NCBI GenBank assembly: GCA_963717365.1
Contig: OY970327.1
Coordinates: 331,599 to 395,598 of the forward strand
Direction: 5' to 3'
Source: Candidatus Saccharimonadia bacterium
GTDB taxonomy: Bacteria > Patescibacteriota > Saccharimonadia > Saccharimonadales > 2-12-FULL-41-12
Length of the DNA stretch: 64,000 bases
In this document: piece after piece, positions 2,651-61,606 of the stretch
Position numbering within the stretch: position 1 is the stretch's first letter
Layout of the letters: each line of letters starts with the position of its first letter
The notes under the pieces: generated by a model
What the model was told of the DNA's origin: nothing
Seen by the model: only the letters and a program-made list of their open reading frames with translations
The model's database searches: none
Position numbers and translations under genes: made by a program

Positions 2651-2651
<1 letters not shown>

Positions 2652-5600
2652 TGCGTAGGTATACTAGCGGAACAAATATTGCCGACTTTGATGCGGTTCG
2701 TTTGGCTGTTGCCAGTCCTGAGGACATTCTTGAATGGAGTCATGGTGAAGTAACCAAGCCAGAAACAATTAACTATCGAACTCAGAAGCCTGAGCGGGAC
2801 GGTCTGTTCTGTGAACGAATTTTCGGACCTGTTAAAGACATTAATCCACACGACGCTAAATATAAAGGTGTTCGCTCACGTGAAGCTGCCGTTGATAAAA
2901 ACGGTGAATTAGTTACTCGGTCAATTGTTCGCCGTGAACGTATGGCACACATTGCGCTGGCGTCACCAGTCGCTCATATCTGGTTCTTGCGTGGTACTCC
3001 AAGTGCTGTTGGTTTACTACTAGGCATGACCGTTAAAAACCTGGAACGCGTTGCCTACTTTGCTAGCTATATTATCAAATCGGTTGATATCGATAAGCGC
3101 GATCAAATGCTAGCTGACAAAGAAGCTGAATTTGCTGCTGCTCAAGCTGCTATCAAAGCCCGCTTTGAAAAAGAAGCCGAAGATGAAAAAGCCAATGTTA
3201 AAGCTTTGGCTGAAATGCAGACTAAAGAGCTTGAAGAAGTTCAGACTGACTGGGAAGCCCTTAAAGAGCAACTCACCGGTCTTACTAAGCTTGCCCTGAT
3301 TAGCGAAAATGATTACCGCGCTCTATCTGATGATGTTCAAAAAATCATCAAAGTTGGCATGGGTGGCGCAGCAATTAAAGAGCTGCTCGAAGAAATTGAT
3401 CTTCTCAAGCTGATTGCTGACCTCGACATAGAAGCCGCTGAAGCTAAAGGCCAGCGCAAAAAGAAAGTCATGAAGCGCCTTCGCTTGCTGGAAAGCATGG
3501 AGCGGGCTGGTATCAAGCCGTCTAGCATGTGTGTTAGCGTTCTGCCGGTTATACCTCCGGACCTTCGTCCTATGGTGCAGCTTACCGGTGGCCGTTTTGC
3601 AACCTCTGATCTAAACGATTTGTATCGCCGCGTAATTAACCGCAACAACCGCCTGAAGAAATTAATGGATCTTAACGCTCCAGAAGTTATTCGCCGCAAC
3701 GAACAACGTATGCTGCAAGAAGCCGTTGATGCGTTAATCGACAACAGCAGTGCCCGCTCTGGCCGGGCTGTAGCCGCCACCGGCCAACGCCGACGTCTCA
3801 AGAGCTTGTCTGACATGCTCAAAGGTAAGCAAGGCCGGTTCCGCCAGAACCTGCTAGGCAAGCGCGTTGACTATTCAGGCCGTTCCGTTATTGTGGCTGG
3901 TCCTGAACTTAAAATGCACCAGTGTGGTCTGCCAAAGATGATGGCTCTTGAATTATTTAAGCCGTTCGTCATCGGTGAGCTCATTAAACAAGAGTTTGCC
4001 CACAACATCCGCTCGGCTACCCGCATGATCGAAATGGCAGAAATTGCCGTATGGGATACGCTGGACGACAGTCATTAAAGATAAATACGTGCTGCTCAAT
4101 CGTGCACCGTCATTACACCGTCTTTCAATTCAGGCTTTCCAGCCGGTATTGATCGAAGGTAAAGCAATCCAGCTGCCACCGCTCGTTTGTAAGGGCTTTA
4201 ACGCTGACTTTGATGGTGACCAAATGGCTGTTCACTTGCCGCTAAGCGACAAGGCCCAAGCCGAAGCCCGTGATATTATGGCTGCCAATAAGAACTTGCT
4301 AAAACCAGCTGACGGTTCTCCAATTCTTCATATCGAACAAGATATTGTCCTTGGTTGTTACTATCTTACCTATGAGCGTCCCGGCAGTACTACGAAAGTT
4401 AAAGCATTCACCAGTATGGCTGAAGCTTTAATGGCTTTGGACGCTGGAAAATTAACACTCCAAGCGCCAATTACGGTAAATTTCCGTGATGAAATTCGTA
4501 CGTCAACGTTAGGTAGATTCATGTTTAATGAAATTTTCCCAAGCGACTTTCCATTTCAAGACGAGGCAATGACCAAAAAGAAACTTGCCGGCGTTATGGC
4601 ATTGGTCTACCAAATGTACGGCCAAGCAAAAAGCGCTGAAATTGCCGATGATCTCAAAACCCTTGGCTTTGACAGCGCTACAAAATCAGGCGTATCAATG
4701 GGTATGAGCGATTTTGTAGACGTCATCAAACTTGACGAGATCCTTGAAAAGGGCGAAGAACGTGCAACCGCTATTAGCGAGCAGTTTGACCAAGGTTTCA
4801 TCAACGAAGATGAGCGTTATCGTTTAACTATCGAGACCTGGACCAGTGCTGATACCAAGATCCAGAAAGCACTTACCGAACAGTTCGCCAAAGAAGACAA
4901 CGCTATGTCTATGGCGGTTGTGTCTGGTGCTCGTGGTTCAATTGTCCAGGTTAAGCAGGTTATCGGCTCTGTCGGTATCTTGTCTGATGCCTCCGGACGC
5001 GCCATGGAGTTGCCAATCAAAAGCAACTATCGTGACGGTTTAAATCCTTTGGAATACTTTACCTCTACTCGTGGCCAGCGAAAAGGTCTCATCGACACTG
5101 CCCTTAAAACAGCCGACTCAGGTTACTTGACGCGCCGTTTGGTTGATGTTGCCCAGGACGTCTTTACGATTGACAATGCCGCGCCTGATCCAGGTTTTGC
5201 AATGTATCGTTCTGACGCCGCTGAAATAGGCGTGCCATATTCGTTCCGTTTAAGCGGCCGTTACGCTGCTGAAAAGATTGGCAGCTACGTTAAATCCGGC
5301 GAGTTAATCACAAAGCCAGTTGCTGAAGCAATTGAAGCTGACGATTCGCTTGACGGAGTTAAGATCATGAGCGTGCTCAGCGGTACTGCCGTTCGTGGCG
5401 TTAATCGTAAGAGCTACGGTGTAGATCCTGCGACCGGCGAGCTAGTGGCTGACCACAGTCCGATCGGTGTTATTGCTGCCCAGAGTATCGGCGAGCCAGG
5501 TACCCAGTTAACGCTGAAGACATTCCACTCCGGTGGTGCGGCAGTTGCCGATGACATTACCCAGGGTCTGCCACGTGTTGAAGAATTGTTTGAAACCCGT

Positions 5601-6491
5601 TCTCCAAAAGGTAAAGCTTACCTGGCAGAAATTCCCGGCAAGGTTAACGTATGGGAAGAGGGTGATCAGTACCATGTTCAAATTACCGACGACGAAGCAA
5701 AGACTTCAGAGCTGACAATTGGCGACCGAATTGTAGCTGTTGCTACCGGCACAGAAGTGCAAGTCGGTGATGTCGTGGCCGCTGCAGAAGGCGGCGAAAG
5801 CCCATTAATCGCGCCAGTATCCGGCAAAGTTTCCATGACTAAGAAGCTAATCACTATTACGCCAGCCGGCCAAAGTACAGTTAAGTATGAAATCCCAAGC
5901 TTTAAGCAGTTATTTGTTAAAGATGGCGACGTTGTTATCGCTGGTCAGAAATTGACCAATGGTTCAGTTAACCTGCATGACCTAATGCGTCTGCAGGGTG
6001 TTGAAGCAACCCAGCGCTACATCATGAACGAAATTCTTCGTATCTTTGCTTCACAAGGCCAGAACATTTCTGACAAACACCTTGAAATCATTGTGCGTCA
6101 GATGTTTAGCCGGGTACAGATTGAAGATGCCGGTGATAGCGAATTCGTAACGGGTGATATTGTCAGTAAGCTCGCGGTAGTAGAAAATACCGAGCAACTG
6201 ATTGCCGAAAAGAAAGAGCCAGCTGTTTACAACCAGTTATTGCTTGGTATCACCAAGGCATCACTAAGTACCGATTCATTCCTATCAGCAGCTTCCTTCC
6301 AAGACACAACTCGCGTGCTGATCGCCGCTGCTACTAGTGGTAAAGTAGATCATCTGTATGGTCTTAAGGAAAACGTTATCTTAGGACGTCGTATTCCAGT
6401 TGGTACCGGTTACCGCACCGAAGAACAGCTTGAGGCGGAAGCCGAAGCTGAAGCAGCTTTGCAGACCGAGTCCAGAGAATCCCGATATTAG
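2651..6491 (+). CDS. rpoC: DNA-directed RNA polymerase subunit beta'; reading frame interrupted once (+1 shift near 4067-4073)
   Basis: ORF 2651-4078 (frame 2) and ORF 4044-6491 (frame 3) are collinear beta': ...AVWDTLDD|[23 protein letters not shown]..., then [12 protein letters not shown] (catalytic Mg motif). SD GAAGGAGAGG lies upstream of ATG 2651. Confidence 0.92.
4067..4073 (+). other. rpoC frame-break site: GAC-AGT-C (frame 2 to frame 3)
   Basis: Frame 2 reads gac gac agt cat taa. Removing one base at 4069/4070 gives D(D/E)[13 protein letters not shown], matching the conserved beta' sequence. Confidence 0.75.
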
Positions 6492-6530
6492 TGAACCAGA
6501 TTATGGTCAGTCTGCTTGCTCTTTGTGACG

Positions 6531-6573
6531 CTATATCTCGACTTCATTAAAAATTAATGAACGGCAGATATAG
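6531..6573 (+). promoter_or_regulatory. Nested AT-rich hairpin/inverted repeat in the rpoC-rpsL spacer
   Basis: The inner perfect stem is TTCATTAA (6543-6550) / TTAATGAA (6554-6561). The outer stem is CTATATCT (6531-6538) / AGATATAG (6566-6573). No T-run follows. Confidence 0.4.
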
Positions 6574-6611
6574 TAGCAAAATGGTATGTCCCAGCTATTC
6601 GTAATGACGAT

Positions 6612-6640
6612 TTGCGGATGACTTGCTTATCTGTTACAAT
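6612..6640 (+). promoter_or_regulatory. Candidate promoter for rpsL-rpsG-fusA
   Basis: TTGCGG (6612-6617), 17-nt spacer, TACAAT (6635-6640). The -35 is weak. Confidence 0.3.
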
Positions 6641-6728
6641 TAACACTAAGTAAAATATAAGTAATCCGAGCCAGGTCATCAAATTGGCATAGACCCGCCG
6701 CAGCAGATTACAGGTTCAAGGAGAATCA

Positions 6729-7139
6729 ATGCCAACCATTAACCAATTAGTGCGTAAACCGCGGGTTAAGCAGACTTCCAAGAGTAAGTCTCCTGCTATG
6801 CAGCGCGTTGTAAATAACCTCAAAACTAAGAATTATGAAAAGCCAGCCCCGTTTAAGCGCGGTGTCTGCGTTAAGGTAACCACTAAAACACCAAAGAAAC
6901 CTAACTCAGCGCTTCGTAAGGTCGCACGTGTCCGTTTAACCAACGGCTATGAAGTATGGGCTTATATTGGTGGAGAAGGTCACAACCTGCAAGAGCACGC
7001 AGCTGTTTTAGTGCGTGGTGGTCGCGTTAAAGACTTGCCAGGTGTGCGTTACCATATTGTTCGAGGTAACCTTGACCTTCAAGGTGTTAGCAACCGCAAA
7101 CAGGGCCGTTCTAAGTACGGTGCCAAAAAGGAGAAATAA
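6729..7139 (+). CDS. rpsL: 30S ribosomal protein S12 (uS12)
   Basis: The sequence MPTINQL...KKPNSALRK... is a recognisable uS12 sequence. AAGGAG SD lies 5 nt upstream. The gene is first in the str operon. Confidence 0.98.
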
Positions 7140-7142
7140 ATC

Positions 7143-7622
7143 ATGCCGCGAAAAGTAACCGCCTCTCTCGTCCGTGATATTAAACCTGATCGCATTTACG
7201 ATAGTGTTCAAGTCCAACGCCTGATTAATCGTGTTATGCGACATGGCAAAAAACAACTCGCTGAACGATTAGTTTATAACGGCATGCAAAAAGCTGCCGA
7301 CAAACTTAAAGTAGATAATCCTCTTGATGTCTTTGAGCAAGCCATGAAAAACGTCCAACCGCACCTTGAGACTCGTTCTCGACGTGTCGGTGGAGCTAAC
7401 TACCAAATACCTTTTGAAGTTAAAGGTCAGCGTCAACAGCACCTCACCATGATGTGGTTTGTTGCCGCTACCCGTAGCCGTAAAGGTATGAGCATGGAAG
7501 ACCGTTTAGCGCTTGAGCTAATGGACGCCTACAATAACACCGGTACCTCTGTTAAGAAACGTGAAGATTCTCATAAAATGGCAGATGCTAACCGAGCCTT
7601 TGCTCATTTCGCTAGGTATTAA
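7143..7622 (+). CDS. rpsG: 30S ribosomal protein S7 (uS7)
   Basis: The uS7 sequence is recognisable (...RVGGANYQIPFEV...). The gene directly follows rpsL. Confidence 0.97.
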   Translation: MPRKVTASLVRDIKPDRIYDSVQVQRLINRVMRHGKKQLAERLVYNGMQKAADKLKVDNPLDVFEQAMKNVQPHLETRSRRVGGANYQIPFEVKGQRQQHLTMMWFVAATRSRKGMSMEDRLALELMDAYNNTGTSVKKREDSHKMADANRAFAHFARY

Positions 7623-7626
7623 GAAT

Positions 7627-8034
7627 ATGGCACTCATCAATAATAATGCAGAGTTTTGTCCGGGCTGTGATTGTGGCGGTAGTTTTATTGGACCTTTGTC
7701 ACCTGAATCATTTGAGTTTTCTAAGATAGATTCTTCAGACGGTAATTGGGGCGAAGGTTTTAATATTAGGGCCAGAGATGAATTCGGCACAAAAAGCGCA
7801 AGTAAAAGAACTTATGACGCATTGGGTCACGCAAAGCCGGAGTTAAAAAATACTGCAGTTCAAGAAGCTGTCGCTGCCATATTGGTAAATCGAGTTATGC
7901 TGTGTAACGGCCCACAAACCATACATACCAGTCGGTACGGTGAGGGAGCGAATGGTATGCAGCTAAGTTGTAGAGCATTATCTTCAGAAGGCATTGATGT
8001 TGCATACGCAAAAGCAGTAGAACAGACTGCTTAA
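7627..8034 (+). CDS. Hypothetical protein (135 aa) with N-terminal CPGCDC motif, inserted between rpsG and fusA
   Basis: The ORF is in frame with track ORF 7561-8034. The first ATG at 7627 lies 4 nt after the rpsG stop. I recognise no family. Confidence 0.55.
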   Translation: MALINNNAEFCPGCDCGGSFIGPLSPESFEFSKIDSSDGNWGEGFNIRARDEFGTKSASKRTYDALGHAKPELKNTAVQEAVAAILVNRVMLCNGPQTIHTSRYGEGANGMQLSCRALSSEGIDVAYAKAVEQTA

Positions 8035-8085
8035 ACTAATGATCTTAAAAAATAATATTGCTTCAACACTGAAAGGTTAAAAATA

Positions 8086-10170
8086 ATGGCTAAAGTAACC
8101 CCAATCGACAAGCTGAGAAACATCGGCATCATTGCACATATTGATGCTGGTAAAACCACTACAACCGAAGGTATTTTGTACCGCACCGGTTTGAAACATA
8201 AAATCGGTGCCGTCCATGAGGGTGGAACTACCACTGACTATATGGCGCAAGAACGTGAACGCGGCATTACTATCGTATCGGCTGCTGTTACCTGTATGTG
8301 GAAAGACCATCAAATTAATATTATTGATACGCCAGGCCACATTGACTTTACGGTTGAAGTGCAGCGTTCGCTGCGCGTGCTTGACGGTGCTATCACCGTA
8401 TTTGACGGTAAGATGGGTGTTGAGTCTCAGTCAGAAACAGTCTGGCGACAAGCTGATGGATACAATGTTCCTCGTATCTGTTTTATAAATAAGATTAACC
8501 AGACTGGTGGAGATTTTTACAAATCACTTGATTCTATCCATGCTCGTTTAACGAAGCGCGCTTTCCCGATTCACCTGCCGATTGGCTTTGAACAAAGCAT
8601 TAACGGTATCGTTGATCTTGTAGCAATGAAAACATATAGCTACAAAGAATTTACTGATAAAGAGTTGGTCGAAGGTGTTATTCCTGCTGATATGCTTGAA
8701 AAAGCTCAAAAATATCGTAGTTTACTGGTTGAAAACGCGGTTGCGGAAGATGAAGCAATTCTAGAAAAGTACTTTGAGGTGGGTGAGGAAGGCCTGAGTA
8801 ATGCAGAAATTATGCAGGCAATTCGCTCAGCTGTTCTAACTGGCGCATTCTTTATTGTTTCTGGCGGTGATGGCCGTGGTGTAATTGTAGAAAAACTGCT
8901 TGATATTGCCACAGAATATTTACCGAGCCCGCTTGATAGAGGCAGTACCTGGGGTAAACACCCTAAAACTGGTGAAGAAGTTGAGCGCAAACCTGAACTT
9001 AGCCAGCCGCTTGCAGGTCTAGCTTTTAAAATTACTACTGACCCATTTGTTGGTAAATTAGCTTACTTCCGCGTCTATTCAGGCAAATTGGTAGCTGGCA
9101 GCTATGTATTGAACAGCTCGTCGGGAGAAAAAGAGCGCATTGGACGTATTGTCCGTATGCAAGCTGATAAGCGGGAAGACGTTGCAGAAGTAACGACCGG
9201 TGATATTGCAGCTATTGTAGGACTTAAAGCAACCACTACTGGCCATACGCTTTGCGACCCTAATAATCAAATTACGTTAGAATCAATTACATTTCCAGAT
9301 CCTCCAGTTTCCATTTCGATTGAGCCTAAGACCAAGTCGGACCAAGAAAAAATGAGCATCGCACTTCAGCGCTTGGCTGAAGAAGATCCAACTTTCCAGG
9401 TCAAAGTAGACCATGAAACTGGCCAAACCATTATTAGTGGAATGGGTGAGTTACACCTTGAAATTTTAGTAGATCGAATGAAACGAGAATTTGATGTCGA
9501 GGCTAATATTGGCCAGCCTCAGGTTGCATACCGCGAAACCATTCGGAAAGATAACGTTGAAGCTGAAGGTAAGTTTGTCAAGCAATCCGGCGGACGGGGT
9601 CAATACGGTCACGTAGTCTTCCGTGTTTCCCAAAATGAAGCCGGTGAAGGCCTAGAGTTCATAAATTCCATCAAGGGCGGTTCAATACCAAGCGAATACA
9701 TTAAGCCAGTAGAGGAAGGCGTTAAAGAGGCTATGGGTAGCGGCGTTCTGGCTGGTTACCCGGTTGTTGATCTTAAAGTTGAATTGTTTGACGGTAGCTA
9801 TCACGACGTTGACTCCAATGAAATGGCCTTCAAAATTGCCGGCTCCATGGGCCTAAAAGAAGCTGTTCGAAATGCCAACCCTGTCTTACTAGAGCCTGTA
9901 ATGAAAGTAGTTGCCGTTACGCCAGAAGAATTTATGGGTGACGTTATTGGTAGCCTTAACTCTAAGCGCGGCAGAATCGAAGCTATGGACGACCTAGCAA
10001 ATGGTATCAAGCAAATTACCTCATTCGTGCCACTCGGTGAAATGTTCGGTTATACCACCGAGCTTCGCAGTTCTACCCAGGGTCGCGCCAGTTCAAGCAT
10101 GGAGCTTGATCACTACGCTGATGTGCCAGGCCATGTGACTGAAGCAATTGTTGCTAAAAACGGCAAATAA
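8086..10170 (+). CDS. fusA: Elongation factor G
   Basis: G1 motif AHIDAGKTTTTE and DTPGHIDF are present. The protein is 694 aa and sits in the str operon position. Confidence 0.98.
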   Translation: MAKVTPIDKLRNIGIIAHIDAGKTTTTEGILYRTGLKHKIGAVHEGGTTTDYMAQERERGITIVSAAVTCMWKDHQINIIDTPGHIDFTVEVQRSLRVLDGAITVFDGKMGVESQSETVWRQADGYNVPRICFINKINQTGGDFYKSLDSIHARLTKRAFPIHLPIGFEQSINGIVDLVAMKTYSYKEFTDKELVEGVIPADMLEKAQKYRSLLVENAVAEDEAILEKYFEVGEEGLSNAEIMQAIRSAVLTGAFFIVSGGDGRGVIVEKLLDIATEYLPSPLDRGSTWGKHPKTGEEVERKPELSQPLAGLAFKITTDPFVGKLAYFRVYSGKLVAGSYVLNSSSGEKERIGRIVRMQADKREDVAEVTTGDIAAIVGLKATTTGHTLCDPNNQITLESITFPDPPVSISIEPKTKSDQEKMSIALQRLAEEDPTFQVKVDHETGQTIISGMGELHLEILVDRMKREFDVEANIGQPQVAYRETIRKDNVEAEGKFVKQSGGRGQYGHVVFRVSQNEAGEGLEFINSIKGGSIPSEYIKPVEEGVKEAMGSGVLAGYPVVDLKVELFDGSYHDVDSNEMAFKIAGSMGLKEAVRNANPVLLEPVMKVVAVTPEEFMGDVIGSLNSKRGRIEAMDDLANGIKQITSFVPLGEMFGYTTELRSSTQGRASSSMELDHYADVPGHVTEAIVAKNGK

Positions 10171-12310: not shown

Positions 12311-12649
12311 ATGGTAGACGCCGCAGTACCAAAAAAACCAGATGGCAAACAACGGATAAGAATTCGTCTTAAGGCCTACGATCACAAAGTAATAGACCAA
12401 TCTGCCAAACAGATTGTTGACACAGCTCTGCGTACCGGTGCTACTATTGCCGGTCCTGTACCGTTGCCAACTCGCCGCAGCACATTTACAGTTGTAAAGA
12501 GTCCACATGTATATAAAAAAGGCCGTGAACAATTTGAAATGCGCGTTCACAAGCGCTTGATTGATGTTTTGGATCCTACCCCAAAAACAATTGATTCATT
12601 GATGAATCTGAGCTTACCGGCTGGCTGCGACGCCGAAATAAAAATGTAA
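12311..12649 (+). CDS. rpsJ: 30S ribosomal protein S10 (uS10)
   Basis: [22 protein letters not shown]... is a uS10 sequence. ATG 12311 is preceded by GAAGAAGG. Confidence 0.96.
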
Positions 12650-12734: not shown

Positions 12735-14729
12735 ATGCCCCAAAATAATAACAATTTACGGATAGATAATCCTGATTTTCAAAAACTGCAGGAAGTAGAA
12801 GCACGCCGCCGACCCTTGCAAGATAAACTGGTAACAGATTCTTTTGCCCTGCCTGTTATGCGACAACATTATATTGATGCTGACAAAAAACTTATGCAGC
12901 AAGCCCAAGAAATTGCTTCATCACAAGATTTTCAGAATATGCTGGCTCAAACCGGATCAATTGCTTTGAGCGGTTTAAAAGAAATCGAACCATTACGAGG
13001 TGTGTTAGACGAAGCTGAAATTACCAAACTTGAAGAAATATTCTCTCACCAACTTGCTGCAGTGACTGATTTTTTTGAACGATATGATGCCGTAACTGAG
13101 CAAGCAACTAGCTTTAAAGAAGTTATGGCAAGCGGCGGTATGGCTGTGAGTCAAACAGTAGAAGTAGATGCTGAGCCGAAACAGGAAACAAAAATAGACG
13201 TATCTCAGCCTGCAAAACAACCCTATAAAAGAAAAATACCTCCTGAGGTTATAAGGTCCACTGAGGATGACCCTAAAACTGAGCTTGTTGTGGAGGTAGT
13301 GAAAAAAGGCATTAAGTTTAACGATAAATTGATCGGTAATCATTATGTAGGCACTAATAAAAATGCAAAAGTACAATTGCTAAAAGGGGCTTCCACGTTT
13401 AAATATGGGTCTGAAAAAAAACCTGCAGAACTTTTTGACATAGCTTTCCCAGGAGAAACATATAGTGCATCGAGGATACGAGACGCAATTAATGCAATTA
13501 ACAGTTATGCGTATCAAGCATCAGGCAAAATTATATTTAAAGATAACGGGTTAGCAACAACGGCCCGAGCGTACACAATAAACCCATATATAACCCTACG
13601 AATGGTTGATAGCCCGGCTGAAACTACCTCTCCAGCGGCGTTGCCCAGAGATATGGAAAGTGCAAAGTCAGCCAAAACTGTAGAATCACCTTCTCATATC
13701 CAGTCACAATTGGAAGCGTTTGCTGCTAAGGATTTGACAGCAGCGGAAGCATATATTGTCGCCTTGCATCTAAAGCGGTTTAACGTTGTATTAGACGCCT
13801 GTGGACTACCAATCATTACAGATGAACTGCTGAGCACTTTTAGCGCAACCCATATACCTGATAATTCACATATGCGGGGTAATGCCCAAGCTATTGGGGA
13901 AAGTCGCACTATATCAGTCAAGAAATTACAGGCGTTATTAGATGATGAACAGAAGTTTTCAGAATTTATAACTAATTCTCAACCTGAAGATCCATTATTC
14001 CAATTTGTTGAATATTTGACAAAAGCTGCTGGTGATGATGGTCTAGAGCTTATTAACTTACTTATGAAAGCTAAGATTTGTAACGAGTCCAAGTTACGGC
14101 CTAATGGCGGCGGGATTGATAAACTAGTACGCTTCACCGTAGTTGACGAACAAGATCGTATTATTTTTCCGATAGAACATAATCAAATAGGAATTATCTT
14201 AAAGGCTTTACCTGGTCACGACCAACCGATTCTTTCTGCCCCTGGCTTGTCAGACGAAGCAGACACAGCCGAAGGTTCAAAAAGTTTAGAAGAAGTTCCA
14301 GGCAGAGAACTTGTTCCCACGCCGGCTGATACTAGTAGCAACGCTTTATCTGCTTCAAAAACCGAAAAGGTATTGAGTTCAGCGAGATTAGAGTTTAGAG
14401 GTTTTATTTCCCGTAAGGCAAATGAGTTTATTGAGACGGGGTTTGATCCGAATAAAGAATTTGGCAGAGAACAGATTACCGGTAAAATCAGAGGATTTAA
14501 TTCCAATACAGTTGGTAAGGCATGGGAAAAAGGAAAAATTGGTCCCGAAGATAAAGCAAACAGTGTATACACAGTTGCTGATGTGATTAAAATACTCGCC
14601 TACAACAATCAAAGATGGAGTAATTATATGAAAATTAGAGGCAATCAAAAAACTGTTGACGAAGATGTGGCACGAACTGTCGCCCTAATACAGAAAAAAT
14701 TTAATAAAGCTAATTCACGGCATGTCTAA
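12735..14729 (+). CDS. Large hypothetical protein (664 aa), first gene of an island splitting rpsJ from rplC
   Basis: Long uninterrupted ORF. No motif I can assign. Mixed helical/acidic composition. Confidence 0.7.
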   Translation: MPQNNNNLRIDNPDFQKLQEVEARRRPLQDKLVTDSFALPVMRQHYIDADKKLMQQAQEIASSQDFQNMLAQTGSIALSGLKEIEPLRGVLDEAEITKLEEIFSHQLAAVTDFFERYDAVTEQATSFKEVMASGGMAVSQTVEVDAEPKQETKIDVSQPAKQPYKRKIPPEVIRSTEDDPKTELVVEVVKKGIKFNDKLIGNHYVGTNKNAKVQLLKGASTFKYGSEKKPAELFDIAFPGETYSASRIRDAINAINSYAYQASGKIIFKDNGLATTARAYTINPYITLRMVDSPAETTSPAALPRDMESAKSAKTVESPSHIQSQLEAFAAKDLTAAEAYIVALHLKRFNVVLDACGLPIITDELLSTFSATHIPDNSHMRGNAQAIGESRTISVKKLQALLDDEQKFSEFITNSQPEDPLFQFVEYLTKAAGDDGLELINLLMKAKICNESKLRPNGGGIDKLVRFTVVDEQDRIIFPIEHNQIGIILKALPGHDQPILSAPGLSDEADTAEGSKSLEEVPGRELVPTPADTSSNALSASKTEKVLSSARLEFRGFISRKANEFIETGFDPNKEFGREQITGKIRGFNSNTVGKAWEKGKIGPEDKANSVYTVADVIKILAYNNQRWSNYMKIRGNQKTVDEDVARTVALIQKKFNKANSRHV

Positions 14730-14778
14730 TTAATTGACTAAGCGTCAAGAAGAAATTATAGATAATTATAAAAAACTT

Positions 14779-14807
14779 TTGCATTATACATATATTTGTA
14801 GTATAAT
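14779..14807 (+). promoter_or_regulatory. Candidate promoter of the 392-aa secreted protein gene
   Basis: TTGCAT (14779-14784), 17 nt, TATAAT (14802-14807), inside a very AT-rich spacer. Confidence 0.5.
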
Positions 14808-14863
14808 ATATAACAATAATATCAATATCATTAACAGTTGAAAGAAATGACAGAATTATAAAT

Positions 14864-16042
14864 ATGAGTTTTGAACGAATACGCAAACAAGCAATAGCAG
14901 CGGCAGCAACGGCAACTATAGCCGGCGGATTGGCAGAAACGGCCACTGCTTCACCGCAGCCTCTTCCAGGCAACGGGCCAAAAGTCTGCGAAGGTTATAC
15001 GAATGGTACCGACCCTACTGTAAACATCCATGAAGTAGGATCTATTTCACCAAAACCAGCTCAACCTGAAGCAAGTGCGCCTGATCCTACTACCAGTGAG
15101 CCCTTTAGTCCAAATCCAGCTCCTGTGGTTGGTGAATACACCAAAGAAGACACGCCATTAGATGATCCAAATAAGGATGACCGCTATTCGACGTTTGCTC
15201 AGTGTAATGGGCCAGAGGTTGTAGAAACAACTTGTAACACACTGGGCGCTTACAAAGTCCAAGAAATTGCAGTTGATAGTTTTAAGGATGACGGCAACTC
15301 GTATATGGCATATGTGTGTATTGGCACCGAAACAGGCGGTTATCCTCCACTAGGAGATGACATAATTTATGGGCCACAGCCACCAGTTGACTGCCCTGAC
15401 GGCAGCGAAGCTTTATCAGCACCACAGCCAAATGTAAGCACGAAATCGGTGAGCGGCAGTAACGAAAATCCTTCTACTTCTGTCAGTACTTCATATTACT
15501 GTGCTAATCCTGACTACTCAGTCGATGAACTACAATCAGATCATATTCTTTCTTCGAATGTATCACCACGTTTCATTCAGAAATGCGTGCATCAATCACT
15601 CGCAAAAGGTACCTGGAGTGTTTCACGATTATCTGGTCGCCCATACCAACTACTGGTTGAACATGGTCAGGCAATAAGCACCAAAGAGATTCCAAGCGAA
15701 CCAAACGGCTATACTTGCGATGATTTTGTTACTGAAAAGCAGACAAAAGTTGTGCCTCTGCTTGGTACAAACATTGGCTCAAGTAAATTGCGTAATAACA
15801 GTTTTGGTTTAAACATTTTTGACGAGCAGGCTGACTTCGATGCTGTTATAGAAGCTGGCCGGAGATATACCTGTGCCGGAACTACTACTGATAATAAAGT
15901 ACGACGCTTTGGCGCAAAAGTTACCATGTCTGTAGTAGTTGATCCCGAAGGAAAACGTCCAAAAAAGCAATCCCGAACTTTCACTGTACTGGCTCCAAAG
16001 CGTATGCCTGTTAATGGCAAGCTTAAGCCAAATGGCTGCTAG
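14864..16042 (+). CDS. Secreted Cys-rich, Pro/Ser-rich hypothetical protein (392 aa)
   Basis: The N-terminus has a signal-peptide-like A/T-rich hydrophobic stretch ending ...ETATA|SP. A P/S/T-rich linker and many Cys residues follow. Confidence 0.7.
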   Translation: MSFERIRKQAIAAAATATIAGGLAETATASPQPLPGNGPKVCEGYTNGTDPTVNIHEVGSISPKPAQPEASAPDPTTSEPFSPNPAPVVGEYTKEDTPLDDPNKDDRYSTFAQCNGPEVVETTCNTLGAYKVQEIAVDSFKDDGNSYMAYVCIGTETGGYPPLGDDIIYGPQPPVDCPDGSEALSAPQPNVSTKSVSGSNENPSTSVSTSYYCANPDYSVDELQSDHILSSNVSPRFIQKCVHQSLAKGTWSVSRLSGRPYQLLVEHGQAISTKEIPSEPNGYTCDDFVTEKQTKVVPLLGTNIGSSKLRNNSFGLNIFDEQADFDAVIEAGRRYTCAGTTTDNKVRRFGAKVTMSVVVDPEGKRPKKQSRTFTVLAPKRMPVNGKLKPNGC

Positions 16043-16673: not shown

Positions 16674-17288
16674 ATGAAAGCATTACTCACCCGAAAGGTT
16701 GGCATGACCAGTACTATCACAGAAGATGGTACAGTTGCTGCTGTTACCTTGCTTTCCGCTAGCGACAATGTGGTAACCCAGATCAAGTCCATTGAGACTG
16801 ATGGGTATCAGGCTGTACAGATCGGCTTTGACGAAGGCAAAAATATTGCTAAGCCACAGCTGGGACATATTAAAGCAGCTAAGAAGAACGTGAAGATTAT
16901 GCGCGAAGTGCGCCTTCCGGAATTACCAGAAGAACAGAAGATCGGCGATACACTATCAGCCGATCTTTTTAGTGTGGGTGATATTGTAGACGTCACTAGC
17001 ACCAGCAAGGGTAAAGGCTGGGCCGGTACTATTAAGCGTCATAACTTCCACCGCCAGCGCGCCACGCATGGTGGCAAGGGCAACACCCGCAAGCCGGGTT
17101 CAATTGGCTCTATGTATCCCCAACGTATTTTCAAGGGGAAGAAAATGGCCGGCCAGATGGGCAATGAGCAAGTTACGGTTAAAAATCTAAAGGTTGCATT
17201 AGTTGATATGGAACTTGGTGTTATCGGGGTCTACGGTGCTGTTCCTGGACCACGCAAAAGCATCGTTATGATTAAGGGAGCTAAGTAA
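16674..17288 (+). CDS. rplC: 50S ribosomal protein L3 (uL3)
   Basis: MKALLTRKVGMT...KGKGWAGTIKRHNF is a uL3 sequence. GGAGA SD lies 4 nt upstream of ATG 16674. Confidence 0.97.
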   Translation: MKALLTRKVGMTSTITEDGTVAAVTLLSASDNVVTQIKSIETDGYQAVQIGFDEGKNIAKPQLGHIKAAKKNVKIMREVRLPELPEEQKIGDTLSADLFSVGDIVDVTSTSKGKGWAGTIKRHNFHRQRATHGGKGNTRKPGSIGSMYPQRIFKGKKMAGQMGNEQVTVKNLKVALVDMELGVIGVYGAVPGPRKSIVMIKGAK

Positions 17289-39255: not shown

Positions 39256-40689
39256 TTATTCAATTTCTTCCATGCTTACCGGCATATGTACTTCGCTTTT
39301 GCGGTAGCCAATACCAATGGGGTATTCACCATTAAAGCAAGATAAGTTAAACATATCAGGGGGAAGTCCAGTAGCCTCTACGGTACGGCTGAGCGAAAGA
39401 AATCCAAGATAATTACATTCAATTTTGTCACGCATTTCTTCAATGGTAAGGTTAGCAGCCGCAAGTTCTGACTGCTTGGGTGTGTCAATGCCGTAATAAT
39501 CTGGAAATCGCACTGGCGGGGAAGCGATCAAAGCGGAAACTGTGCGCGCTCCGCATAACTTCGCCAGCTTAACCAGGTTGGGCAAGGTATTGAGTCGCAC
39601 AACGGAGTCATCAATTAAAATAACATCTTTACCTTTAACTGCCTCTGGAATCATATTATGTTTTCTGCGAAGCTGCTGCTTGCGCTGTACTTGGTCAGGG
39701 TACATAAACGTTCTTCCGATATAGCGGTTTTTAATTACCGCATGTCGATGCATAACACCCAGTCTTTCGGCGTAGCCTTCGGCAGCCGGTGTTGAAGTAT
39801 CTGGGATAGGTACTACGACCACATTATCTAACTTATCGGTGATTGGCGGATGTTGGTCAGCTAACTGATAACCAAAATTGCGCCTAACTTCATTGACGCT
39901 TTTGTCATATAAACGACTGTCATGACGGGCAAAATACACAAATTCAAACATATCGAGTTTAGATTTACCATCAGATATTTGCCGTGACTCTACCGAGCCA
40001 TCTCTTGCTATAATCACCATTTCGCCAGGTCCAACTTCACGGTCATAGGTCGCGTCAATTATATCTAACGCGCATGTCTCAGATGCAATAACTTTACCAT
40101 CCTCAAAGCTTCCCATAGCAAGTGGCCGAATACCTTTTGAATCACGAAAAGCCACAACCAAGTCATCATGCATAGCAACACAGGAAAATGCCCCTTTAAA
40201 TAATGGATAAGCAAGTTCCACGGCAGATGGTAGGTCTTGACCCCCGCGTATCTGCTGCGCTATGGCTAAGCCCATCATCTCGGAATCATTAATTTTTGTA
40301 GTCTTAATGTTGTTACTTGATAAATATCTCTCTAAAAATGTTGTAATTGGCAAATTTCCGTTGTGACCTAAGGCAAAGCCAACCGATGGATCCTTGTAGG
40401 GTTGCGGGTGCCTAAGCTTAGAGCCCGATGTGGAGTACCGATTATGCCCAATTGCTATTTTGCCCGCTAGACGCCGTATATCTTTGGCAGCGTAAACGTC
40501 ACGAACTAGTCCACGTTCGCGGTGCGACTGTAGGTGCCCATCAGAGGTCAAACTAGCAATACCGCTCGCTTCCGCACCTCTGTGTTGCATTGCAAATAGA
40601 TTTTCGTAAACAAGTTCTGAGGCCGATATTTCTGGATCGTTTGTAACGATCGCAGCAACCCCGCATTTCTCTCTTGCTTCCAATGCCAT
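39256..40689 (-). CDS. purF: Amidophosphoribosyltransferase-like protein (class II glutamine amidotransferase + PRTase)
   Basis: The N-terminus ...EKCGVAAIV carries the Ntn Cys after a short propeptide. HNRYSTSG and HNGNL are present. The PRPP loop is VILIDDSVVRLNT and the C-terminus has ...FNGEYP. Confidence 0.85.
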   Translation of the reverse strand: MALEAREKCGVAAIVTNDPEISASELVYENLFAMQHRGAEASGIASLTSDGHLQSHRERGLVRDVYAAKDIRRLAGKIAIGHNRYSTSGSKLRHPQPYKDPSVGFALGHNGNLPITTFLERYLSSNNIKTTKINDSEMMGLAIAQQIRGGQDLPSAVELAYPLFKGAFSCVAMHDDLVVAFRDSKGIRPLAMGSFEDGKVIASETCALDIIDATYDREVGPGEMVIIARDGSVESRQISDGKSKLDMFEFVYFARHDSRLYDKSVNEVRRNFGYQLADQHPPITDKLDNVVVVPIPDTSTPAAEGYAERLGVMHRHAVIKNRYIGRTFMYPDQVQRKQQLRRKHNMIPEAVKGKDVILIDDSVVRLNTLPNLVKLAKLCGARTVSALIASPPVRFPDYYGIDTPKQSELAAANLTIEEMRDKIECNYLGFLSLSRTVEATGLPPDMFNLSCFNGEYPIGIGYRKSEVHMPVSMEEIE

Positions 40690-43074: not shown

Positions 43075-45039
43075 TTAAGCTTGGTTGGTAGTATCAAGCT
43101 TATCTTGAATGTGCGAGATATCAAGTACAGTATTTATGTATTCTGCGTGGCTCCAAACTAACGGCGTAACAGATAAGGGTGCGCTGGTTTCCGGGTTAAT
43201 CTGCTCGGGTAGTACTCCACTCTCTAAAGCTTTACTGGTAGTCCAGTTAAGAATACTACGAGCTTCATCAAATTTTCGGTAGCGAACATAGAATTGGGCT
43301 AACCAAAGTGTAGATATAATCCATGGGTTACCCAAATAAGTATCTGAGGTGCGGAAATAATTATCATGTTCATAGCGAGGAGCGCCGCCAGAAGGGGACT
43401 GGTTGTTAAATGATTGCTCGATTTCATTCATAGCAGCCGCAATGTCATGCTTGTCTTCGTCGTTATGGTAACCAAAAGTGATAATTCCATATAGACTTGA
43501 GAGGTCTAGCGTATTATCAAAGCCTAGTGAGCCTTCTGGACTTACCAGAAACCCTTTGCGGTATCCTGCACGATCTGGATTATTGAATGTTTGGCGACGA
43601 GCCAATAAACTAGCGGCCGTTTGGCGCCAGACTTCGGCTTGCTCAGTAGTGCCAAATTTTTCTGCAAAATCTGCTGCAACTAATAATGCGCGGTACACTG
43701 TTGCAGTCGTGTAGGTGCTACAGAGAAACTTTTCTTCCCACAGGTCATAACTGGCATGGGGAAGGCCAGTTGCTTCATCAATAAAGCTACAAAGAAAGTT
43801 AGTTGCCGGTATCACAAAACTGCTAAACATTTCGCGGGAAAAATCGTCATCTTGGCTATCATGATGGAATTCGCCAAGCATTATAATGACAATGGCTGTT
43901 TCATCCTCTTGAATAGCCAATTCCTTGCGGTTATTATGCAGCAACGGATGCCAGGTGCTGCCAATAGCTCTGTCTGGCTGGTATTTATGCATCAGATAAC
44001 CTGACTCAGTCATAATGTCATTACAAAAACGGAAAAAGGCCTTTGGTTCTTCGGTATAACCAAGACGGATAAGTGGCCAAATGGCGTAGGCGCCATCACG
44101 TGGCCAAACATAGCTATAATAGTCCCGGCCATAGTTATAGATACTACTGTCGCATGATGCAATTATGCCGCCACGGTCATCTGTGTGAACTTTTATGACC
44201 ATCAAGGATTTGTTTACCATTGCTTTATGTTCTTGGCTAACGTGAGATAGACGCTCGGCACCTGTGCTTAGCCAACGCTCCCAGTATCGTTTGTTCGATT
44301 CTAAGCGACTCGGTAATCCGATTTTTAATTGATCATGAATAATTTCATTATTGTATTGCGTATCGGATGCAACAATCCAGTAATCAATTGCCTGGCTGCT
44401 GTGAGGTTCTATTTCCAAAGAGAAGCGAATCACCGAATCAACTCCTCCATGTTCGACGTTGTGGCCAGATAATTCACCATCCTCGGCGTCTTTAAAGGTA
44501 CCTTGCTTGCCTTCAATGCCGTAATTGCCTACGGCGTATTCATCAAAGCCTTCACCACTATGATGCTTGCCGGCTATAAGTAGGCTGCAACGGCCTTTAT
44601 AATCAAGAATATAATGCGCTTCAGGTACGTACAGAGCAGTATCGGCTCGGCCAGCCCTGGAAATTTCAAAGACTTGATGCATAAATAGGCGGACAGACCG
44701 GCTTTGGTCGCCGTCATTGTGTACAGTTATAATCCGGCAGAAGGCATCAACTTCGTAATCGACAAAATCGGTAAACTTTAGAGTAATTTGCAGTTCTGGA
44801 TGCGCCAATGTAACATCACTCACCAGGGCTTCTGTGGAAAAATCAACGCGCGATTGCCAAATCTCGTCGTCGGTCCAGGAAAATTGTCCGTCAACCCAAA
44901 CTCCAATCTTATGATGGACGCTTCTTGCGGTCGTCAGGTTATCTAGGCCAACATAGGGGTAGTAGAAGTCGTGGACCATCCCACGCTCGTTTAAGCCGAC
45001 GGTTAAACGTCCATTACCAAGAATAACTGAACGTGCCAT
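43075..45039 (-). CDS. Glycoside hydrolase family 15 (glucoamylase/glucodextranase-like)
   Basis: 654 aa. The catalytic (alpha/alpha)6 domain has GH15-like signatures (...YSYVWPRDGAYA..., ...LWEE...). Confidence 0.8.
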   Translation of the reverse strand: MARSVILGNGRLTVGLNERGMVHDFYYPYVGLDNLTTARSVHHKIGVWVDGQFSWTDDEIWQSRVDFSTEALVSDVTLAHPELQITLKFTDFVDYEVDAFCRIITVHNDGDQSRSVRLFMHQVFEISRAGRADTALYVPEAHYILDYKGRCSLLIAGKHHSGEGFDEYAVGNYGIEGKQGTFKDAEDGELSGHNVEHGGVDSVIRFSLEIEPHSSQAIDYWIVASDTQYNNEIIHDQLKIGLPSRLESNKRYWERWLSTGAERLSHVSQEHKAMVNKSLMVIKVHTDDRGGIIASCDSSIYNYGRDYYSYVWPRDGAYAIWPLIRLGYTEEPKAFFRFCNDIMTESGYLMHKYQPDRAIGSTWHPLLHNNRKELAIQEDETAIVIIMLGEFHHDSQDDDFSREMFSSFVIPATNFLCSFIDEATGLPHASYDLWEEKFLCSTYTTATVYRALLVAADFAEKFGTTEQAEVWRQTAASLLARRQTFNNPDRAGYRKGFLVSPEGSLGFDNTLDLSSLYGIITFGYHNDEDKHDIAAAMNEIEQSFNNQSPSGGAPRYEHDNYFRTSDTYLGNPWIISTLWLAQFYVRYRKFDEARSILNWTTSKALESGVLPEQINPETSAPLSVTPLVWSHAEYINTVLDISHIQDKLDTTNQA

Positions 45040-46241
45040 TAAAATGCTCCCGATCTCAGGCGTAAATTATGCCAAGAATTCATGAAGTTAGTATATGCTT
45101 CGTACGGACTTTCGTATGGGCTGAAATAGGCATGAATATCCCCGTCACTAAACCACTTGGTGCACATATAATAAAAATGATCTGAGGTTTGCATACGGCG
45201 CCAATCTTCTATTAAAGCAAAGTCACCGCTTTTAATAATCGGGGTTTGCAGCTCGTACAGCGCTTTTATGGCTTGCTGCTGCATTGGGTTACCAAGCCAG
45301 GCCGATAAATCACGCTCCGTATCCGCCCAGGTAGTTGTTTGCTGTACATCAACCTGGTCGACCGGATGGAACGAATCGGCGGCTTCTGAGAGGGTCATAA
45401 AGGTATGTTCGGGGTTAGCTAGCCATTTTTCAGGCAAATGTCCTAGAAATTCAAAGATACCGGTGTCATCCCATTGATGTTCGCCAAACGTCTCGTAGTC
45501 CATAAACAAATTAAAGTTGGTAGCTTCGCCGGAGTTGCTCAGCCAATTTGTAAACTTATCAGCAGTTAACGGCCACTCTGACCAATCGTGGTTACTAAAA
45601 CGAAAGGCAATATCATCACTCAATTTATAATTTTTCATAAGTAGGCGAATATTGTTTGTGTAAGTGGGGCGGTACACAAAATTAGGGCTGCGCCAGCCAA
45701 GTACCGGATCCCAGCCCTCAGCCAAAATTGCTTTGTAGCCCGCTTGATCTGCCCAGTAAGCTAAGTCGTTGTTATAGCTAAGCTCTGTATTACGAAAAAC
45801 CTGAGGGGTTTGGCCGAATAATTCCTGCACTTTTTCACGGTGCATCGTCACCTGCATTTCAAATTCAGCCTGAGAATAAAAAAAGGCCAAGCTGTGATGG
45901 TATGTCTCGGCAACTATCTCTACTCGGCCGGTAGCCACTAATTCTTGAAAAGATTTTAAGGCGCCCGGAGCCCATTTTTGCAATTGCTCAAGTACCGTGC
46001 CAGTTATTGATAGACTTAACTTAAATTCTGGATGTTGTTGCAACAACTGCAATAGCTTTTGGTTGGTTGGAATATATGATTTTTGAGCTACTTTATGAAT
46101 AATTCGCTCATTACTAGTACGATCATCGTAATTGGTATCAAAATAATTTGAGTCGCTACCTGAATCAAAAATAGTATAGTGCCTTATACGGTATGGTTGG
46201 TGTACGTGAAGATAGAGTATTATAGCTTTTTGCTGGCTCAT
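45039..46241 (-). CDS. Glycoside hydrolase family 57 (alpha-amylase/glucan-processing)
   Basis: The N-terminus ...LYLHVHQPYR... and overall GH57-like sequence. Overlaps both neighbouring genes. Confidence 0.8.
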   Translation of the reverse strand: MSQQKAIILYLHVHQPYRIRHYTIFDSGSDSNYFDTNYDDRTSNERIIHKVAQKSYIPTNQKLLQLLQQHPEFKLSLSITGTVLEQLQKWAPGALKSFQELVATGRVEIVAETYHHSLAFFYSQAEFEMQVTMHREKVQELFGQTPQVFRNTELSYNNDLAYWADQAGYKAILAEGWDPVLGWRSPNFVYRPTYTNNIRLLMKNYKLSDDIAFRFSNHDWSEWPLTADKFTNWLSNSGEATNFNLFMDYETFGEHQWDDTGIFEFLGHLPEKWLANPEHTFMTLSEAADSFHPVDQVDVQQTTTWADTERDLSAWLGNPMQQQAIKALYELQTPIIKSGDFALIEDWRRMQTSDHFYYMCTKWFSDGDIHAYFSPYESPYEAYTNFMNSWHNLRLRSGAF

Positions 46242-60892: not shown

Positions 60893-61606
60893 TTGGGAGT
60901 TTATAGTAATACTGAGATTAATGAAGCGCTGGATACAGGCCATATTGTTTGCGTACCGTTTAATCCAAAGCACGTTGCCCATGCCAGTCTCGATGTTACC
61001 TTAGGTTATTACTACTACCGCACTGGCCAGGCCAAACGTGGATATGTATATAACCCATTTGACGAATACGATGTAAACCGTTACTTTGGCGAAGTTCACC
61101 AAGCTGTTCCACACCAAGACTGGTGCCATGCCAACAACGTACGTTTACTTGAGGGCATTCCACCAGATCATCCTGTTATCCCCCTTAAACCCGGTGAACG
61201 AATTTTAGCTCATACGCACGAATTTTTTGGTATCAAGCCGCCGGGAGCTTATGAAATTAAATCTCGTTCTAGTTGGGGTCGCAACGGCATAGCTGTTTGT
61301 TTTGATGCAGGCTGGGTTGATCCAGGCTACATTAATCGACTAACCTTAGAAATTTATAACTTAAACGAACATGAGACCGTTCTGCTACCGGTTGGCGAAC
61401 GGATTGCCCAAGCTGTGTTTCACCGTACTGGTCCGGTGGATGGCAATTACGGCGAGGGCCGTCACGCTGGCATGAGTGGGAAGTATCAAAGCGGTACCGA
61501 TCTGGATACGCTTATTAAAAATTGGGCGCCTCACCAGATGTTGCCACGAGCTTATAAAGATTCGCGAAGCCTGCCGGAGGCCATACAAGGTTTAAAAGCC
61601 CGATGA
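60893..61606 (+). CDS. dcd: dCTP deaminase family protein (possibly bifunctional dCTP deaminase/dUTPase)
   Basis: ...FDAGWVDPGYINRLTLEIYNLNEHETVLLPVGERIAQAVF... is the family core. TTG start 7 nt after GGGAG. Confidence 0.82.
   Translation: MGVYSNTEINEALDTGHIVCVPFNPKHVAHASLDVTLGYYYYRTGQAKRGYVYNPFDEYDVNRYFGEVHQAVPHQDWCHANNVRLLEGIPPDHPVIPLKPGERILAHTHEFFGIKPPGAYEIKSRSSWGRNGIAVCFDAGWVDPGYINRLTLEIYNLNEHETVLLPVGERIAQAVFHRTGPVDGNYGEGRHAGMSGKYQSGTDLDTLIKNWAPHQMLPRAYKDSRSLPEAIQGLKAR

Follow-up and report, generated by a model that had tools for sequence, protein, structure and literature searches.

A surplus nucleotide in rpoC of a Candidatus Saccharimonadia contig, probably a local consensus or assembly error

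The deposited sequence of rpoC, the predicted gene for the RNA polymerase beta' subunit, changes reading frame by a single base, which raises the question whether this base belongs to the organism and is recoded, tolerated or used to split the subunit, or whether it arose while the record was made. Within the window (the whole 64,000-nt stretch of DNA that was analysed), rpoC started at ATG 2651 behind a Shine-Dalgarno (SD) sequence, AAGGAGAGG; this and the other rpoB and rpoC features given below are on the + strand. Alignment of the RpoC of relatives to the window by tblastn placed residues 1–473 at 2651–4069 in frame 2, with 91–92% identity, and residues 474–1255 at 4071–6416 in frame 3, with no residue lost at the switch. 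The C-terminal part as a whole covered 4071–6491 in frame 3 (residues 474–1279), contained the NADFDGD motif and was 88–89% identical to its homologues. Direct reading of frame 2 gave GTA TGG GAT ACG CTG GAC GAC AGT CAT TAA (VWDTLDDSH, then a stop at 4076–4078), the out-of-frame tail AGT CAT TAA (Ser-His-stop, 4070–4078) closing a product of 475 aa. Frame 3 was open from 4029. In a MAFFT nucleotide alignment with three relatives (L001–L003), the sole 1-nt gap corresponded to one extra base at 4069/4070, and no further indel was found until the variable C-terminus. The deposited letters at 4064–4073 are GACGACAGTC. Direct reading, tblastn and alignment all bore out the +1 break from frame 2 to frame 3 at GAC-AGT-C that a first-pass annotation of this DNA had described.

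With one base removed, the best homologues of the rpoC product were 88–91% identical over 98–100% of the length, and they carry the domains PF04997, PF00623, PF04983, PF05000 and PF04998. Solved beta' chains (PDB) matched it at E = 1e-34 to 1e-36. This collinear, full-length similarity, which includes the NADFDGD loop, identifies the predicted product as an RNA polymerase beta' subunit. The 475-aa N-fragment was a singleton in the protein collection, where it derived from a contig of 1,191,543 bp.

Among 83 relatives, the codon at the break was GAA or GAG (Glu) in about nine out of ten and occasionally specified Val, His, Gln or Thr, but never Asp (GAY). On this basis C4069 (GA[C]A) would most parsimoniously be the surplus base, while A4070 (GAC[A]GTC) is a possible alternative since the beta' of Clostridioides has Asp at this residue position. 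The first-pass annotation had held that the skipped position was an A followed by G at all three breaks in rpoB and rpoC; in rpoB an A is surplus at both 1912 and 2156, whereas the rpoC site is ambiguous and homology favours an inserted C.

The surplus base is present in this record and unique to it among the sequences compared. All 120 best RpoC homologues were full length (1,264–1,289 aa), and all 28 JGI metagenome contigs matching the junction peptide pattern had a 3-nt spacer; the break was absent from both sets and from 83 genome loci, all of which belong to other species. At these 83 loci rpoB was never broken, and rpoC was broken once (L034), elsewhere in the gene; none of the three rpoB/rpoC shift sites was common to any relative examined. 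A copy from the same species was sought by exact-protein look-ups of the N-fragment, fusA, rpsL and guessed partial products, by protein searches that included 78-aa and 532-aa junction queries, and by degenerate DNA scans of JGI metagenomes. These searches of protein collections and JGI metagenomes returned only the record's own fragments and one Logan contig, and no same-species protein spanning the junction. The Logan contig, from run ERR12037361, was near-identical, started about 130 nt past the rpoC site and had an RpoC that was not identical.

Three further candidate explanations were tried and rejected. The databases contained a pile-up of truncated RpoC of approximately 475–480 aa, considered as a sign of a shared break; the ends were scattered and most likely represent contig ends. 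A sliding best-hit analysis against the 83 relatives, directed at a chimeric segment, did not reveal any stretch for which another relative, or a far closer one, took over. For an effect of a contig end, the partial rpoB product expected from a contig beginning at window base 1 was not on record.

The gene upstream, rpoB, contained two extra bases, at 1912 and 2156, that moved the reading from frame 1 to 2 to 3. Each of the three breaks is +1, and from first to last they cover 2,158 nt, as the first-pass annotation had stated (about 2.2 kb). The residue directly after rpoB break 1 (CTT-A-GAT, 1909–1915; 0-frame CTT AGA T) is Asp in place of the Gly found in 80 of 81 relatives, and rpoB break 2 (CTT-A-GGC, 2153–2159; 0-frame CTT AGG C) cuts the invariant QQPLGGKAQ motif between QQPL and GGKAQ. 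Both are literal Ty1-type CTT-AGR heptamers, break 2 being exactly the Ty1 sequence CTT-AGG-C and break 1 its AGA variant. Of the 19,424 ways to insert a single base into rpoB and rpoC together, 16 yield an in-frame CTT-AGR, and the chance that two of three insertions produce one is about 2e-6, a figure computed after the fact. The 0-frame A-site codon was AGN at all three breaks, and TAA followed exactly two codons after each insertion (chance of a stop at that distance about 0.1 per site). AGA and AGG were rare, with overall frequencies of 5.9 and 2.2 per 1000 codons and shares of 3.3% and 1.1% among the Arg codons of translation and transcription genes. In-frame CTT-AGR pairs were not avoided elsewhere (3 observed vs. 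3.0 expected), in a test of little power.

At the rpoC site, the heptamer, codon and fold tests agreed with the first-pass annotation, which had judged an indel or artefact likelier than slippage. With GAC in the P site, no re-pairing on ACA in the +1 frame is possible; the lack of a slippery P-site codon had already been noted. AGT, the A-site codon, is a common one here, used at 13.6 per 1000 codons and accounting for 16% of the Ser codons of translation and transcription genes, which does not correspond to a slow A site. In-frame GAC-AGT was observed 11 times vs. 5.9 expected, again without avoidance, and the exact heptamer GAC-AGT-C occurred in frame in rpsE (24756) and in the genes at 39256–40689 and 49972–50946, one of the latter two being amidophosphoribosyltransferase-like. 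No GGAGG or SD-like stimulator was present in the 25 nt upstream of the break, and the predicted structure of the 80 nt downstream (−14.3 kcal/mol, z = −0.87) was not beyond shuffled controls. The shift site was conserved at 0 of 83 genome loci and in 0 of 28 metagenome contigs. Judged by its sequence, the rpoC site fails as a programmed +1 frameshift site in every respect tested. Frameshifting on the stop codon (CAT-TAA-A here, with the equivalent in rpoB) was also rejected on homology, as the conserved VI, or the invariant GG in the case of rpoB, would then give way to other residues.

Known +1 frameshift sites include those of yeast Ty3 (GCG-AGU-U) and EST3 (CUU-AGU-U), with which the rpoC site has the 0-frame A-site AGU in common; as in Ty3, its +1 codon is Val (GUC at rpoC, GUU in Ty3) and its P-site tRNA is unable to slip. 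It differs from both in lying in a bacterium in which AGU is common, in having its heptamer in frame in ordinary genes and in not being conserved, and to our knowledge GAC is not among the special P-site codons of the Ty3 type. To Ty1 (CUU-AGG-C), Escherichia coli prfB (CUU-UGA-C) and a suppressed rpoB frameshift mutant of E. coli (CCC-AGG-C), the rpoC site is similar solely in the letters AG of its A-site codon, and unlike prfB it has neither an SD stimulator nor an A-site stop codon. The neighbouring rpoB breaks match this layout exactly, both having a CUU P-site codon followed by rare AGG or AGA, and the E. coli mutant is a precedent in the same gene family. That +1 frameshift mutant is viable, with 5% suppression at CCC-AGG-C and feedback that brings the protein to 61–71% of the wild-type level (PMC7022156).

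If the insertions are real, full-length beta and beta' could be made by +1 frameshifting at the AGN codons, a reading that we regard as possible yet unlikely. The rpoB sites would act in the manner of Ty1 (CUU-AGG-C, CUU-AGA-U), with a pause on the rare Arg codon and the tRNA-Leu slipping onto UUA, and the rpoC site in the manner of Ty3 (GAC-AGU-C), with Val-tRNA entering out of frame on GUC and no slippage; such sites might have arisen by accident and be tolerated with the help of RNA polymerase autoregulation, or might have evolved as a control of the polymerase level. The Ty1 heptamer and its variant, their low chance expectation, the rarity of AGA and AGG in the window genes, the recurrent AGN and TAA, the viable E. 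coli mutant (PMC7022156) and the otherwise indel-free window all argue for it. However, the rpoC site has none of the tested features, all three sites are absent from the relatives examined, the low-powered test showed no avoidance of in-frame CTT-AGR, and with two sequential shifts in rpoB and a third in rpoC the losses would be compounded for two proteins that are both essential and abundant. Nor are radical changes such as RpoB G637D and RpoC H509P expected beside the sites in a working enzyme. The full version, in which all three bases are real and both large subunits depend on AGN shifts, each backed by TAA two codons downstream, appears improbable. Were it true, the amount of charged tRNA available would govern polymerase output, coupling transcription capacity and translation in a feedback loop. 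A literature search found no report of natural bacterial RNA polymerase subunits dependent on +1 recoding; real bases would make this the first natural case known to us, and the first yeast-Ty-type frameshift site known to us in a bacterial core gene, extending the laboratory finding of viable rpoB frameshift mutations (PMC7022156).

Real insertions could also mark a non-functional rpoBC copy, either a very recent pseudogene whose intact counterpart lies at another place in the 1.19-Mb genome, or a defective genotype captured in the consensus. Three frameshifts together with G637D and H509P at near-invariant residues point that way, but the genes are otherwise fully constrained (RpoC up to 91% identical to relatives in protein vs. 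76–79% in nucleotides), their private residues are not significantly above those of fusA and tuf, and the rpoB-rpoC-rpsL-rpsG-fusA-tuf context within the 64-kb window is normal. A duplicated rpoBC would be out of the ordinary for a genome of roughly 1 Mb. We consider this explanation very unlikely. Least credible of all, and highly unlikely, is a truly split beta', in which the 475-aa N-fragment ending at TAA 4076–4078 would assemble with a C-fragment reinitiated at TTG 4044 or GTG 4089. Both rpoC reading frames are long and open, and these start codons lie 35 nt ahead of and 11 nt past the stop. Natural and engineered beta' splits exist in other organisms, and as in the cyanobacterial and plastid rpoC1-rpoC2 and the archaeal A'/A'' pairs, two consecutive frames here jointly cover the subunit; in contrast to those, the frames overlap, a translation start signal is missing, and the arrangement is found in one record rather than across a clade. 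In E. coli beta' numbering the junction falls at 414/415, within the conserved catalytic domain and 44 residues ahead of NADFDGD, whereas cyanobacterial gamma (624–625 aa) contains this region internally (residues 386–479 or 386–480) and ends at about 624; the break is indeed not at the cyanobacterial split, as the first-pass annotation had said. Its remark that the second fragment has only a TTG without an SD also held: TTG 4044–4046, preceded by ACCCGCATGATCGAAATGGCAGAAA, is the sole frame 3 start codon upstream of the junction, against ATG at all 26 gene starts checked in the window, most with an AAGGAG/GGAGG-like SD. No promoter or terminator signal beyond shuffled controls was detected at the break, none of 83 + 28 + 120 relatives is split here, and a split would leave the two rpoB breaks, one of them within QQPLGGKAQ, unexplained. 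With the wrong position, unsplit relatives and a second frame lacking an SD, the locus does not resemble a split of the rpoC1/rpoC2 type.

The likeliest reading, which we consider probable, attributes the surplus rpoC base to an error in the local consensus or assembly, and we infer that the base is not in the organism's DNA. This is favoured because the break is unique to the record, because the alignment becomes perfect, with every residue retained, once a single base is taken out, and because recoding signals are absent at the rpoC site. It is favoured further because G637D, A470T and H509P lie at or near the breaks, because the three breaks cluster in 2.2 kb with none in the approximately 70 other tiled genes of the window (about 30 of them checked by tblastn or Pfam domain coverage), and because broken rpoC calls on long contigs exist in other public Saccharibacteria MAGs (e.g., L034/P0227 and P0248). 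A single extra base, two adjacent frames and absence from all homologues are likewise features of consensus indel errors in MAGs. The error context, by contrast, was not typical. Residual indels in long-read consensus sequences are typically located in homopolymers (PMC9262707), whereas none of the three breaks was, and none of the 25 homopolymers of ≥7 nt in the window caused a frame break. A systematic or methylation-linked error motif, raised as a possibility in the first-pass annotation, was not found among the candidates: YAGNNNNTAARG (13 occurrences vs. 9.7 expected), YGNNNNTAARG (the motif without the insertion; 45 occurrences, none at a frame break), CTTGG (159 occurrences), C.CTTGGY and GACGTC were neither enriched nor consistently affected. 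The artefact reading is weakened by this lack of a common motif, by the clean remainder of the window and the non-homopolymer context, and by the CTT-AGA-T and CTT-AGG-C created by the rpoB insertions and the TAA two codons after all three.

An error of this kind could arise while the consensus of the region is built, for example through mis-polishing, or through merging of reads from slightly different co-occurring strains. The extra rpoB bases and the base scrambles at 1913–1915, 4058 and 4176–4178 would then stem from the same fault in this region, and the organism would make a normal beta' of 1,279 residues with the junction VWD(T/A)LD(E/D). If so, non-homopolymer insertions and base scrambles are clustered in the two most conserved genes of an otherwise clean 1.19-Mb contig; rpoB/rpoC-based phylogeny, completeness scores and pseudogene counts would be corrupted, and the record would need correction.

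The first-pass annotation was silent on the unusual substitutions beside the breaks, as it was on the Ty1-type heptamers of rpoB. RpoB G637D adjoins rpoB break 1. In RpoC, A470T (ACG, Thr, 4058–4060) is located three codons ahead of the break, at a position that is Ala (GCN) in 81 of 82 relatives, and H509P is part of CCACCG (Pro-Pro, 4176–4181), where relatives have CAC or CAT followed by CCN (His-Pro; His in 80 of 81). Private residues amounted to approximately 0.35% of the conserved columns in rpsL, rpsG, fusA and tuf; given this background, two private residues within three residues of the breaks are unexpected (P about 0.004, an estimate). The solved bacterial beta' chains that matched best likewise have His at the position of RpoC 509, and the change to Pro is accounted for by one A displaced by one base (CACCCG to CCACCG).

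In this Saccharimonadales (Saccharibacteria/TM7, Patescibacteria) genome, the rpoC gene starts at ATG 2651 behind a good Shine-Dalgarno (SD) sequence and runs on the forward strand. Its N-terminal part (2651-4069, residues 1-473, located by tblastn with the proteins of relatives) lies in frame 2, which by direct reading ends in a stop at 4076-4078, and its C-terminal part continues in frame 3 from GTC 4071 to 6491. Residues 474-1255 were placed by tblastn at 4071-6416 with no residue lost across the junction, and nucleotide alignment with the three closest fetchable loci (76-79% nucleotide identity) located a single surplus base at 4069/4070. The +1 frame break described in the first-pass annotation was confirmed by direct reading, tblastn, and nucleotide alignment, as was its statement that rpoB is also broken, twice, at CTT[A]GAT (surplus base 1912) and CTT[A]GGC (2156). 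At the junction, about nine-tenths of 83 relatives have a Glu codon (GAA or GAG) and the rest one for Val, His, Gln, or Thr; Asp was found in none of the 83. An inserted C (GAC GA[C]A GTC) would therefore be the most parsimonious reading of the surplus base, and a surplus A (GAC GAC [A] GTC) would also be possible, since a Clostridioides beta' has Asp at this position. The earlier rule that the skipped base is always an A followed by G thus held for both rpoB breaks but is not forced at 4069/4070, where homology favours the inserted C.

The break was not shared by relatives. All 120 best RpoC protein homologues (77-91% identity), led by proteins of uncultured Saccharibacteria, were full length, and all 28 contigs returned by a scan of JGI metagenomes with a degenerate junction-peptide pattern allowing a spacer of 2-4 nt had the normal 3-nt spacer. 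Among 83 species-representative genome loci, none had a broken rpoB and one had a broken rpoC: in this groundwater MAG (isolate NC_groundwater_1926; L034:3120-3240) the break lies elsewhere in the gene, near residue 565, and the lesion is more complex, looking like a deletion of several bases. Truncated RpoC calls also occur in other long-contig MAGs, such as P0248, a database protein of 600 aa encoded on a contig of 1.23 Mb. None of the compared sequences was from the same species, the nearest having about 79% nucleotide identity, and the only source on record for the protein fragments of the window was one NCBI/ENA contig of 1,191,543 bp. No independent copy of the species was found; the sole near-identical read-level contig was a Logan contig of run ERR12037361 (3,949 bp, about 4203-8150), whose sequence begins some 130 nt past the rpoC break, in the wobble position of a codon in NADFDGD. 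It encodes an identical S12 protein but its part of RpoC differs from that of the window, with a partial product one residue longer, and therefore a close strain seems to be present in this run. Guessed translations of the window RpoC, of 762 or 761 aa, had no match on record.

The three breaks at 1912, 2156, and 4069/4070 bear out the clustering within about 2.2 kb noted earlier. The clustering suggests a local cause; three uniformly placed events would fall so close together in a 64-kb window with P ~0.004 (our estimate). When each RpoB and RpoC residue was compared with 82 relatives in columns at least 80% conserved, four residues in RpoB and six in RpoC were private, i.e., seen in no relative. 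RpoB G637D (1913-1915, GGN to GAT; Gly in 80 of 81 relatives) directly follows the first rpoB break, where the window reads CTT AGAT ATT and relatives CTT GGT ATT, and RpoC A470T (4058-4060, GCN to ACG) lies three residues before the rpoC break. Two private residues so near the breaks (at most 3 residues away) were unexpected (P ~0.004, our estimate); in the control genes rpsL, rpsG, fusA, and tuf, private residues made up about 0.35% of conserved columns. RpoC H509P, 36 residues past the break (4176-4181), replaces a His (LHPLVC) that 80 of 81 relatives share with the best-matching bacterial beta' chains of solved structure; the underlying DNA change, from CACCCG to CCACCG, moves one A by one position and looks like a compensated indel pair. 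The displaced base, and the insertion accompanied by a G-to-A change next to it, have the appearance of consensus scrambles and are unlike what evolution would produce where a working enzyme is near-invariant. Several further private residues, in fusA and rpsG, could likewise be read as coding-strand G-to-A changes. Since no motif able to explain a systematic error, no sign of a contig end at the window start, and no chimeric segment were found, the nature of the local cause at rpoBC is something that we infer: the rpoC break is probably a one-base error in the deposited consensus, within a local patch of consensus errors that would extend from about 1.9 to 4.2 kb and include the surplus rpoC base.

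The insertions could instead be real, with their effect rescued by tolerated or programmed +1 frameshifting, a reading that we regard as possible at clearly lower probability and that rests on the rpoB heptamers, not on the rpoC site. The second rpoB break, CTT-AGG-C (2153-2159), is the exact +1 frameshift heptamer of yeast Ty1 and the first, CTT-AGA-T (1909-1915), the corresponding variant with AGA. Both of these Arg codons are rare, AGA at 5.9 and AGG at 2.2 per 1000 codons overall (3.3% and 1.1%, respectively, of the Arg codons in translation and transcription genes). Of the 19,424 single-base insertions that rpoB and rpoC together allow, only 16 would create an in-frame CTT-AGR, so that its occurrence at two of three breaks has a chance probability of ~2e-6, as calculated after the fact. 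At all three sites a TAA falls exactly two codons past the surplus base (1912-1920, AGATATTAA; 2156-2164, AGGCGGTAA; 4070-4078, AGTCATTAA), where each site had a chance of about 0.1 of showing a stop; the extended motif YAGNNNNTAARG was not enriched in the window (13 vs. 9.7 expected). The window is otherwise clean of frame breaks: it is tiled by some 70 genes whose junctions are normal, the approximately 30 checked by tblastn or Pfam domain coverage appear unbroken, and none of its 25 homopolymers of at least 7 nt causes a break. Residual indels in long-read consensus sequences are normally located in homopolymers (PMC9262707). A laboratory precedent also exists: an E. coli rpoB mutant carrying a +1 frameshift stays viable because the shift is spontaneously suppressed at CCC-AGG-C with 5% efficiency, and feedback brings the protein up to 61-71% of the wild-type level (PMC7022156). 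At the rpoC site, however, all testable features of programmed +1 frameshifting fail. As had been argued from the sequence, a slippery P-site codon is missing, tRNA-Asp on GAC being unable to re-pair on ACA. The A-site codon AGT is common (13.6 per 1000 codons; 16% of Ser codons in translation and transcription genes), no SD-like sequence lies upstream, downstream structure did not exceed shuffled controls (z = -0.87), and the shift site was conserved in none of the relatives compared. Ordinary genes contain 11 in-frame GAC-AGT pairs where 5.9 would be expected, and the exact GAC-AGT-C is in frame in rpsE, an amidophosphoribosyltransferase-like gene, and one third gene; it therefore cannot alone be an efficient shift signal. 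The sole likeness is to the Ty3/EST3 sites of yeast, where AGU likewise occupies the A site and the +1 frame offers a Val codon.

A genuine split of beta' at this position is very improbable. The junction corresponds to E. coli beta' 414/415, within the conserved catalytic domain and 44 residues before the catalytic NADFDGD; in the cyanobacterial gamma subunit (624-625 aa) this region is internal and not at the end, in agreement with the earlier statement that this is not the cyanobacterial split point. The second fragment has, as also noted before, only TTG 4044 without an SD, the sole frame-3 start before the junction, whereas all 26 checked gene starts in the window use ATG, most with an AAGGAG/GGAGG-like SD. 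No promoter or terminator signal was found at the site, and a split beta' would leave the rpoB breaks unexplained, one of which lies within the invariant QQPL/GGKAQ. That this rpoBC copy is non-functional is improbable too, if somewhat less so. Compared with both, the consensus error remains our preferred reading.

Elsewhere in the window, a pair of large ORFs, of 664 and 392 aa and neither with a Pfam match, occupies 12735-16042, between rpsJ (12311-12649) and rplC (16674-17288), breaking the usual S10 operon order; the corresponding interval in the loci of two relatives, L002 and L003, contains no more than two short genes (~200 and 90-100 aa), both unannotated. Genes for a GH15 glucoamylase-like protein, a GH57 protein, and a GT4/starch-synthase-like glycosyltransferase overlap by 1-4 nt on the minus strand (43075-47452), an arrangement that resembles a compact gene cluster for alpha-glucan metabolism. 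The ORF for ribosomal protein L1 (58879-59904) encodes 341 aa with the L1 domain confined to residues 143-331, and so has either an N-terminal extension of 140 residues or its start codon set too far upstream. A single 774-aa ORF at 61603-63927 combines a thymidylate kinase domain (16-203) with ThyX (Thy1) domains in two stretches, and adjoins a dCTP deaminase-like gene.
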